Positions 2,823 to 3,153 of a stretch of 16,242 nucleotides of DNA are shown piece after piece. Below the pieces are notes generated by a model, which ran no database searches, had not been told where the DNA came from, and saw nothing but the letters and a program-made list of their open reading frames with translations. Within the stretch, counting starts at the first letter, position 1; every line of letters begins with the position of its first letter. The stretch is from NCBI GenBank assembly GCA_050298055.1, contig JBNKTL010000041.1, forward strand, positions 23,832-40,073. Direction: 5' to 3'. Both the position numbers and the translations under genes were made by a program. Source of the stretch: Spirochaetota bacterium (GTDB taxonomy: Bacteria; Spirochaetota; UBA4802; UBA5550).

Positions 2823-3000
2823 GGGGCAAAAGCTATTTTATCCTTGAAAACTGCTTGAAAAAAAGTCAAGATTAGATTAGATAGTATTGAGAGATGAAAA
2901 GTAGCGGTTAAGCTGTATTTATTTTCCATCATACAGCAGGGCATGTATGGTGGACCCATAGATCATTCTATTTAAGATTAAGATTAAAAAAAGGAGATAA

Positions 3001-3135
3001 CTACCCGGCTGTTTGTCTGAAAGAGAGATTTTAAATAAAAGAGTAACAATATGTCTACTCCGCCTGCGGCGGCGGGAACACAGCAGTTATTTTAAATTTA
3101 TTAACATGCCTGTTTTTTAGATTAAGCCCGGGTAG
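3001..3135. mobile_element. MITE-like insertion (135 bp) with 16-bp target-site duplication
   Basis: Ends CTACCCGGCT...AGCCCGGGTAG are inverted. They are directly flanked by TAAAAAAAGGAGATAA (2985-3000) and TAAAAAAAGGAGATTA (3136-3151). Central palindrome CCGCCTGCGGCGG at 3060-3072. Confidence 0.75.
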
Positions 3136-3153
3136 TAAAAAAAGGAGATTATC

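Follow-up and report, generated by a model that had tools for sequence, protein, structure and literature searches.

We propose, with a probability of roughly 0.9, that the element inserted upstream of eno in the window (the whole stretch of 16,242 nucleotides analysed) is a gene-less MITE carrying the ends and the 8-bp target duplication of a single-gene IS66 (ISBst12-type) insertion sequence (IS), whose transposase likely acted in trans. There is good support for linking this abundant MITE family to an ISBst12-type IS66 element that was recently mobile. A sequence-only reading of the same DNA had suggested a 16-bp duplication at ribosome-binding sites, which, if true, would imply an unknown transposase with a safe-harbour strategy; this claim fails. 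The features at issue are the following.

2985-2988, plus strand: host bases, earlier counted into the left 16-mer (family profile)
2989-2996, plus strand: left copy of the 8-bp duplication, AAAAGGAG, an orphan sequence resembling a Shine-Dalgarno (SD) site (family profile, leader fold)
2997-3139, no strand assigned: non-autonomous element (MITE) with IS66/ISBst12-type ends (family profile; 70% identity to the family consensus)
2997-3010, plus strand: left TIR, degenerate, starting ATAA against GTAA in the family (family profile, end counts)
3052-3080, no strand assigned: GC-rich central hairpin; the family stem is 13 bp (fold, family alignment)
3126-3139, minus strand: right TIR, degenerate, with TAAA at the end against TTAC in the family (family profile, end counts)
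3140-3147, plus strand: right copy of the 8-bp duplication, containing the eno SD AGGAG (family profile)
3148-3151, plus strand: host bases, earlier counted into the right 16-mer (family profile; eno leaders of relatives)
3154-4455, plus strand: intact 433-codon ORF, presumably enolase (ORF list; orthologues in relatives)

The inverted repeats and central palindrome of the sequence-only reading are both present, and its classification as a MITE fits an element of 143 bp with no transposase ORF, ends of 14-16 nt and a dispersed family. No ORF of at least 80 aa starts inside the element on the plus strand; one spurious minus-strand ORF, overlapping eno, terminates inside it. The element region is predicted to form one long RNA hairpin (z -4.62; 0/200 shuffles; DNA fold z -2.53), and the central hairpin of this copy has three changes in its 5' arm and one in its 3' arm. 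An Rfam covariance-model scan of 2400-3300 gave no match on the element at E <= 1 and two off-element matches (E 0.4 and 0.83), both under gathering scores, while a promoter and terminator scan returned three promoter-like sites against 2.1 expected and zero terminators. The sequence is not an assembly artefact, because a second sample of the study yielded a 332-nt contig that agrees with 2911-3242 at every position. The downstream ORF, which we take to be enolase from recognition of its sequence, has orthologues in 39 of 40 relatives at 57-84% identity.

BLASTN with the element against its own genome returned 175 loci at E <= 0.001, so the element is multi-copy. Up to 120 of these loci, flanks included, were aligned, and the alignment, conserved over 141 nt from GTAAC through GTTAC, was made into a profile with 385 non-overlapping matches in the genome and none in the reversed genome. 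Both ends are present in 183 matches, the left only in 92, the right only in 79 and neither in 31. The family consensus end is GTAACTACTCAGCT, and 143 of 366 ends start with GTAA. This profile places the element at 2997-3139, whereas it had been called as 135 bp with CTACCCGG ends, boundaries that lie 4 nt too far inside at each end; similarly, its last base is 14 nt before the eno ATG at 3154, not 2 bp from it. The case shows the risk of fixing element boundaries on one worn copy. The eno copy is 70% identical to the consensus, against a family median of 79%, with 20 of 183 copies lower; full copies share a mean pairwise identity of 70%, and no pair reaches 95%. Part of this divergence may predate insertion, because the CCCGG change sits in both arms, and since its ends are worn the copy is probably no longer mobile. 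By crude gene calls, 9 of the 183 full copies overlap an ORF. Neither copy orientation relative to flanking genes (48 vs 41) nor the TTCG loop on the mRNA strand (17 vs 22) is biased.

The length of the target duplication was tabulated from flank identity for lengths 2-21 over the 183 full copies and 200 shuffles. Identity peaks at 8 nt, with a mean of 0.69 against 0.39 in shuffles (maximum 0.42). Perfect 8-mer duplications flank 27 of the 183 copies (0.28 expected), and 70 have at most one mismatch (1.7 expected). No other length in this range stands out: lengths 5-11 around the peak barely exceed the shuffle maxima, and at length 16 mean identity is 0.365 vs 0.36. At eno, AAAAGGAG flanks the element on both sides as an 8-bp duplication (2989-2996, 3140-3147), and five of seven other copies with the CCCGG end variant have duplications of 7/8 or 8/8.

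The long direct repeat noticed earlier does exist: the 16-mers at 2985-3000 and 3136-3151, 151 nt apart, are identical at 15 of 16 positions with an exact 14-nt core. In each, 4 host bases and 4 element bases of similar sequence flank the 8 duplicated ones, and the repeat looks like 16 bp because the AT-rich terminal 4 nt of the worn copy resemble AT-rich host bases. We scored the 16-bp geometry by comparing the terminal 4+4 nt of each element with the host bases beyond the 8-mer. The eno copy reaches 7/8, alone among 183 copies and unusual given ~0.07 expected among 70 well-preserved ones. That score and the 15/16 repeat are the points in favour of a true 16-bp duplication by some as yet unnamed enzyme preferring ribosome-binding sites. 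Such a duplication would, however, remove the terminal 4 nt that are conserved family-wide, and the family has no excess of extension beyond the 8-mer (mean 2.64 vs 2.53 of 8, p = 0.14, n = 70). SD motifs are also rare among the targets: with both strands counted, GGAG/GAGG is present in 4 of the 183 right 8-mers and in 2 of the left ones, against 10.3 expected per flank from 438,931 intergenic 8-mers. Moreover, the partner IS described below duplicates 8 bp. The 8-nt peak, the extension test, the SD counts and the partner IS thus refute a 16-bp duplication at the family level, family and partner both showing 8 bp, the IS66 length, and we regard this explanation as vanishingly improbable.

The insertion may instead have duplicated 8 bp and acquired the extra similarity later, through A-tract slippage or conversion or because selection favoured A-rich sequence ahead of the SD. 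This would suit the rarity of the right end TAAA (7/366 family ends) and the finding that 7/8 would be reached by 5 of 364 end pairs taken elsewhere in the family if set against the eno-site flanks. Yet the left variant ATAA is common (37/366), no family-wide trend is seen, and an event with a frequency of ~7% per genome is unremarkable for a copy picked on that feature, which leaves later acquisition unlikely. The 16-mer is a mildly unusual coincidence, or local homogenisation, atop an 8-bp duplication.

Under the IS66 reading, a DDE transposase would recognise the ~16-nt element ends and cut the A-rich leader of eno with an 8-nt stagger spanning the SD, and gap repair would copy AAAAGGAG to both sides of the element. 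Insertion would be tolerated because a duplication covering the SD leaves the spacing between SD and ATG unchanged. As noted before, the duplication leaves an SD in front of eno: the right 8-mer holds AGGAG, 6 nt upstream of the ATG, and this downstream SD copy is predicted to be mostly unpaired in the leader fold (0.71-0.99). No start codon lies 4-12 nt behind the left, upstream SD-like copy at 2989-2996. No empty eno allele was found in sequencing runs X1-X3, of which X1 and X2 have the element, nor by a metagenome pattern scan (0 matches), nor among 24 eno leaders of relatives, which belong to other genera and are too diverged. Two of these 24 relatives also have a hairpin-core element in front of eno, ~90-150 nt away and at other positions (L037 in G004 and L027 in G013); the L037 copy has CAGT-type ends.

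Insertion at an SD site reflects which events survived rather than any targeting. The target 8-mers have a GC content of 14% (70 copies), and no preference other than AT richness is evident in 102 sites. The proposal that the enzyme favours ribosome-binding sites fails, because SD motifs are under-represented among the 183 targets. When neighbouring genes were called crudely, 91 copies had tandem genes on either side, 80 divergent and 7 convergent ones, and intergenic DNA as a whole divides 56/33/10% among these classes. Distances from copy to start codon are under 20 nt in 15 of 251 cases and 20-49 nt in 74. Copies thus lean to gene leaders yet avoid the SD itself, a pattern that AT-rich targets combined with purifying selection could explain.

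The sequence-only reading left the mobilising enzyme unnamed, but its family can be identified as single-gene IS66 from a 16-nt end match. The genome has four PF03050 matches, three of them in three-gene-type IS66 elements with other ends. The fourth stands at the end of contig C43 and is followed by the MITE right end. Left IS ends terminate contigs C74, C75 and C91, and a second right IS end is found at C73. All three left ends agree at every position of the 74-77 nt compared, as do both right ends, and for 16 nt inward from each terminus the single-gene IS reads the same as the MITE consensus. The N-terminal fragment of the IS matches DUF6444 and, at the borderline, zf-IS66 (27.2 bits, cut-off 27.3), and the C-terminal fragment matches DDE_Tnp_IS66. 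A single 482-aa ORF in a relative (G019) matches the fragments at its two ends, with 66% and 76% identity; it is the one ORF of a 1543-bp element and passes NCBIfam NF033517, as do full homologues of 480-482 aa with similar ends in two relatives (L010, L012).

In its own assembly the transposase is represented by the two end fragments, its middle (about aa 148-320) being absent. A search of the assembly for TIR-like ends separated by 250-5000 bp gave no complete IS, because IS copies break contigs. The case for an intact gene in this genome rests on a single 1511-bp contig of run X1, of which 505 nt of sequence were seen and which terminates in the right IS end; its word depth, which is no copy number, is 47.6 against about 11 in the flanks. 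The IS flanks on C75 and C43 share a perfect 8-mer (L004:1360-1371). In run X2 the same IS site is empty, with a single 8-mer, and a 30-nt loose end matches the C75 flank at 30/30 positions; the insertion is thus present in sample S1 and empty in sample S2 of the same study. The single-gene IS duplicates 8 bp and was recently mobile. Full IS copies in relatives (L010, L011) have flanks matching at 5/8 and 4/8 by eye, with no clean 8-bp duplication.

Mobilisation of the MITE in trans by an IS66 transposase is likely, judging from the matching ends and duplication length, and the mobiliser at the time may have been a relative of the IS present today, because no two full MITE copies reach 95% identity. 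We also considered whether the MITE interior derives from an internal deletion of the parent IS. This failed: the family profile matches the IS, whose middle was taken for this comparison from a relative, only over the terminal 17-28 nt and at non-significant scores, so the element is not a simple IS deletion product. Separately, a 180-bp internal-deletion derivative of the IS lies at C6:102525-102705, and end-only derivatives of 32 and 42 bp occur at C13:68578-68609, which has a perfect 8-bp duplication, and at C2:120789-120830.

The three-gene IS66 elements are extremely improbable mobilisers of the family in place of the single-gene one. Two are intact in this genome (L001 on C91, L002 on C87), encode DDE_Tnp_IS66 and start with GTAA as the MITE does; however, their ends diverge from it after 4-5 nt, in contrast to the 16-nt match of the single-gene IS. 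About 90 nt separate the right end of L001 from a left end of the single-gene IS. In the available portions of the sources, three-gene IS66 elements differ further in their size of about 2.4-2.8 kb and extra ORFs, and ISPpa5a and ISPpa7 likewise duplicate 8 bp (PMC3281130).

Once the boundaries are corrected, the ends match a characterised IS, ISDge4 of Deinococcus geothermalis, for which the accessible text of the report gives ends GTGACTACTCAGCA and GTAACTGCTCAGCA, one 449-aa ORF, an 8-bp duplication and transposition observed in experiments (PMC12898284). That text classes ISDge4 in the ISBst12 group of IS66, and our use of the group name follows it. The likeness lies in ends of the form GT(A/G)ACT(A/G)CTCAGC, the 8-bp duplication and, in the autonomous partner, a single ORF of 450-480 aa; on the same partial comparison, the window element differs in its 143-bp length, lack of an ORF, GC-rich central hairpin and worn ends. 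IS elements with long duplications (IS1202-like) were rejected: there are no TGT/ACA ends and no duplication well above 8 bp. In the sections available, the IS1202 family is described with TGT/ACA ends and 3-5 bp duplications at dif sites (PMC10132070), which do not match the element.

Prokaryotic MITEs are described, in the accessible part of a census, as non-coding, 50-800 bp long and mostly intergenic, with TIRs of at least 10-15 bp and duplications of 2-10 bp, and as abundant in Spirochaetes (PMC11602168). The portion of its main text available leaves IS66 unmentioned; in the present case the partner transposase is identified. A search of mostly open-access literature found no paper on IS66-derived MITEs. 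A parallel for insertion close to a gene start comes from ISGka1 and ISGka2, which insert upstream of pyrF in Geobacillus kaustophilus in clones that express the gene; a GAAGGAGA motif located 7-14 nt ahead of the gene is duplicated, at the ordinary length of 6-8 bp (PMC8024623, as far as its text was available). To read GAAGGAGA as a ribosome-binding site is our interpretation, the available text giving no such label, and these elements differ in being IS701-family, autonomous and recovered under laboratory selection.

Conservation is higher in the central hairpin (0.87) than in the arms (0.76), and the gap widens at G/C positions (0.87 vs 0.62). Its stem has 50 compensatory changes in 2379 cells, a count that ignores relatedness, with no strand bias; shared ancestry or arm-to-arm conversion could account for them. 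This conservation, the occurrence of the hairpin with other ends in relatives (in tandem in one) and the seven Y1 transposase matches in the genome favour a REP-like repeat spread by a Y1/RAYT enzyme, with the IS66-type ends secondary. The hairpin is nonetheless at none of the seven Y1 loci, two of which are flanked by different hairpins; a TIR-like 12-mer lies near 174 of 206 hairpins; and duplications flank the whole element and are retained in hairpin-less derivatives. We judge this explanation very improbable. Independently of the element, Y1 genes at C13:35284-35893 and C37:46862-47513 lie between paired, unrelated GC-rich hairpins in a REP/RAYT-like arrangement.

Beyond this genome, the core pattern occurs on the forward strand 148, 111, 40, 26 and 19 times in five relatives chosen for having it. 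Among the matches listed, 72 core loci were sampled from four of the five, and 35 of these have both ends of CAGT type and are mostly 120-121 bp. This second family has a 9-bp duplication (0.87 vs 0.44; 19/35 perfect), and the profile of the GTAA-ended family matches only the middle of its elements (median positions 32-100). One relative (G012) holds GTAA-type and CAGT-type elements and one hybrid (L053, C178, about 290-430), in which the shared hairpin lies between ends of different type, CAGT on the left and GTAA on the right. Three 85-bp hairpin-less copies of the CAGT family keep 8/9 or 9/9 duplications. These observations raise the tentative and rather doubtful possibility that the hairpin core is a separately maintained module riding on the ends of unrelated transposases; its conservation would then reflect selection for structure or for a protein-binding site in gene leaders.

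No transposase of the 9-bp CAGT family was found with PF01609 in five genomes (16 matches) or among 20 unpaired ends in one genome. CAGT-ended elements of about 121-130 bp occur in G011, G004, G013 and G012 (L080-L151) and in G035 (L152-L159). Also in G011 is a multi-copy IS of 1503 bp (L167-L175) with CTAATCATTACCCAC ends, a 464-codon open frame with a weak PF01609 match and apparently 9-11 bp duplications, often beside GC-rich palindromes. A GTDB-wide pattern scan for a GTAA end plus core gave 14 loci in three Spirochaetes/Leptospirales MAGs, which may overlap the sampled relatives; the host is accordingly probably a spirochaete without a cultured representative. In the genome of the window, a CAGT-type end lies ~48 nt outside a GTAA-type MITE copy (C3:109799-109812), possibly a nested insertion, and IS66-type ends stand beside other GC-rich hairpins at C58:26855-27047, C29:23416, C26:25884 and C66:5306, which suggests other cargoes. 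The window further contains a ribbon-helix-helix ORF (1913-2428, minus strand, and 2400-2503) with a weak RHH_1 match; the genome encodes about 20 paralogues, with identities of 34-93%, and in several a stretch of about 100 nt spanning the start of the gene is shared at the DNA level.
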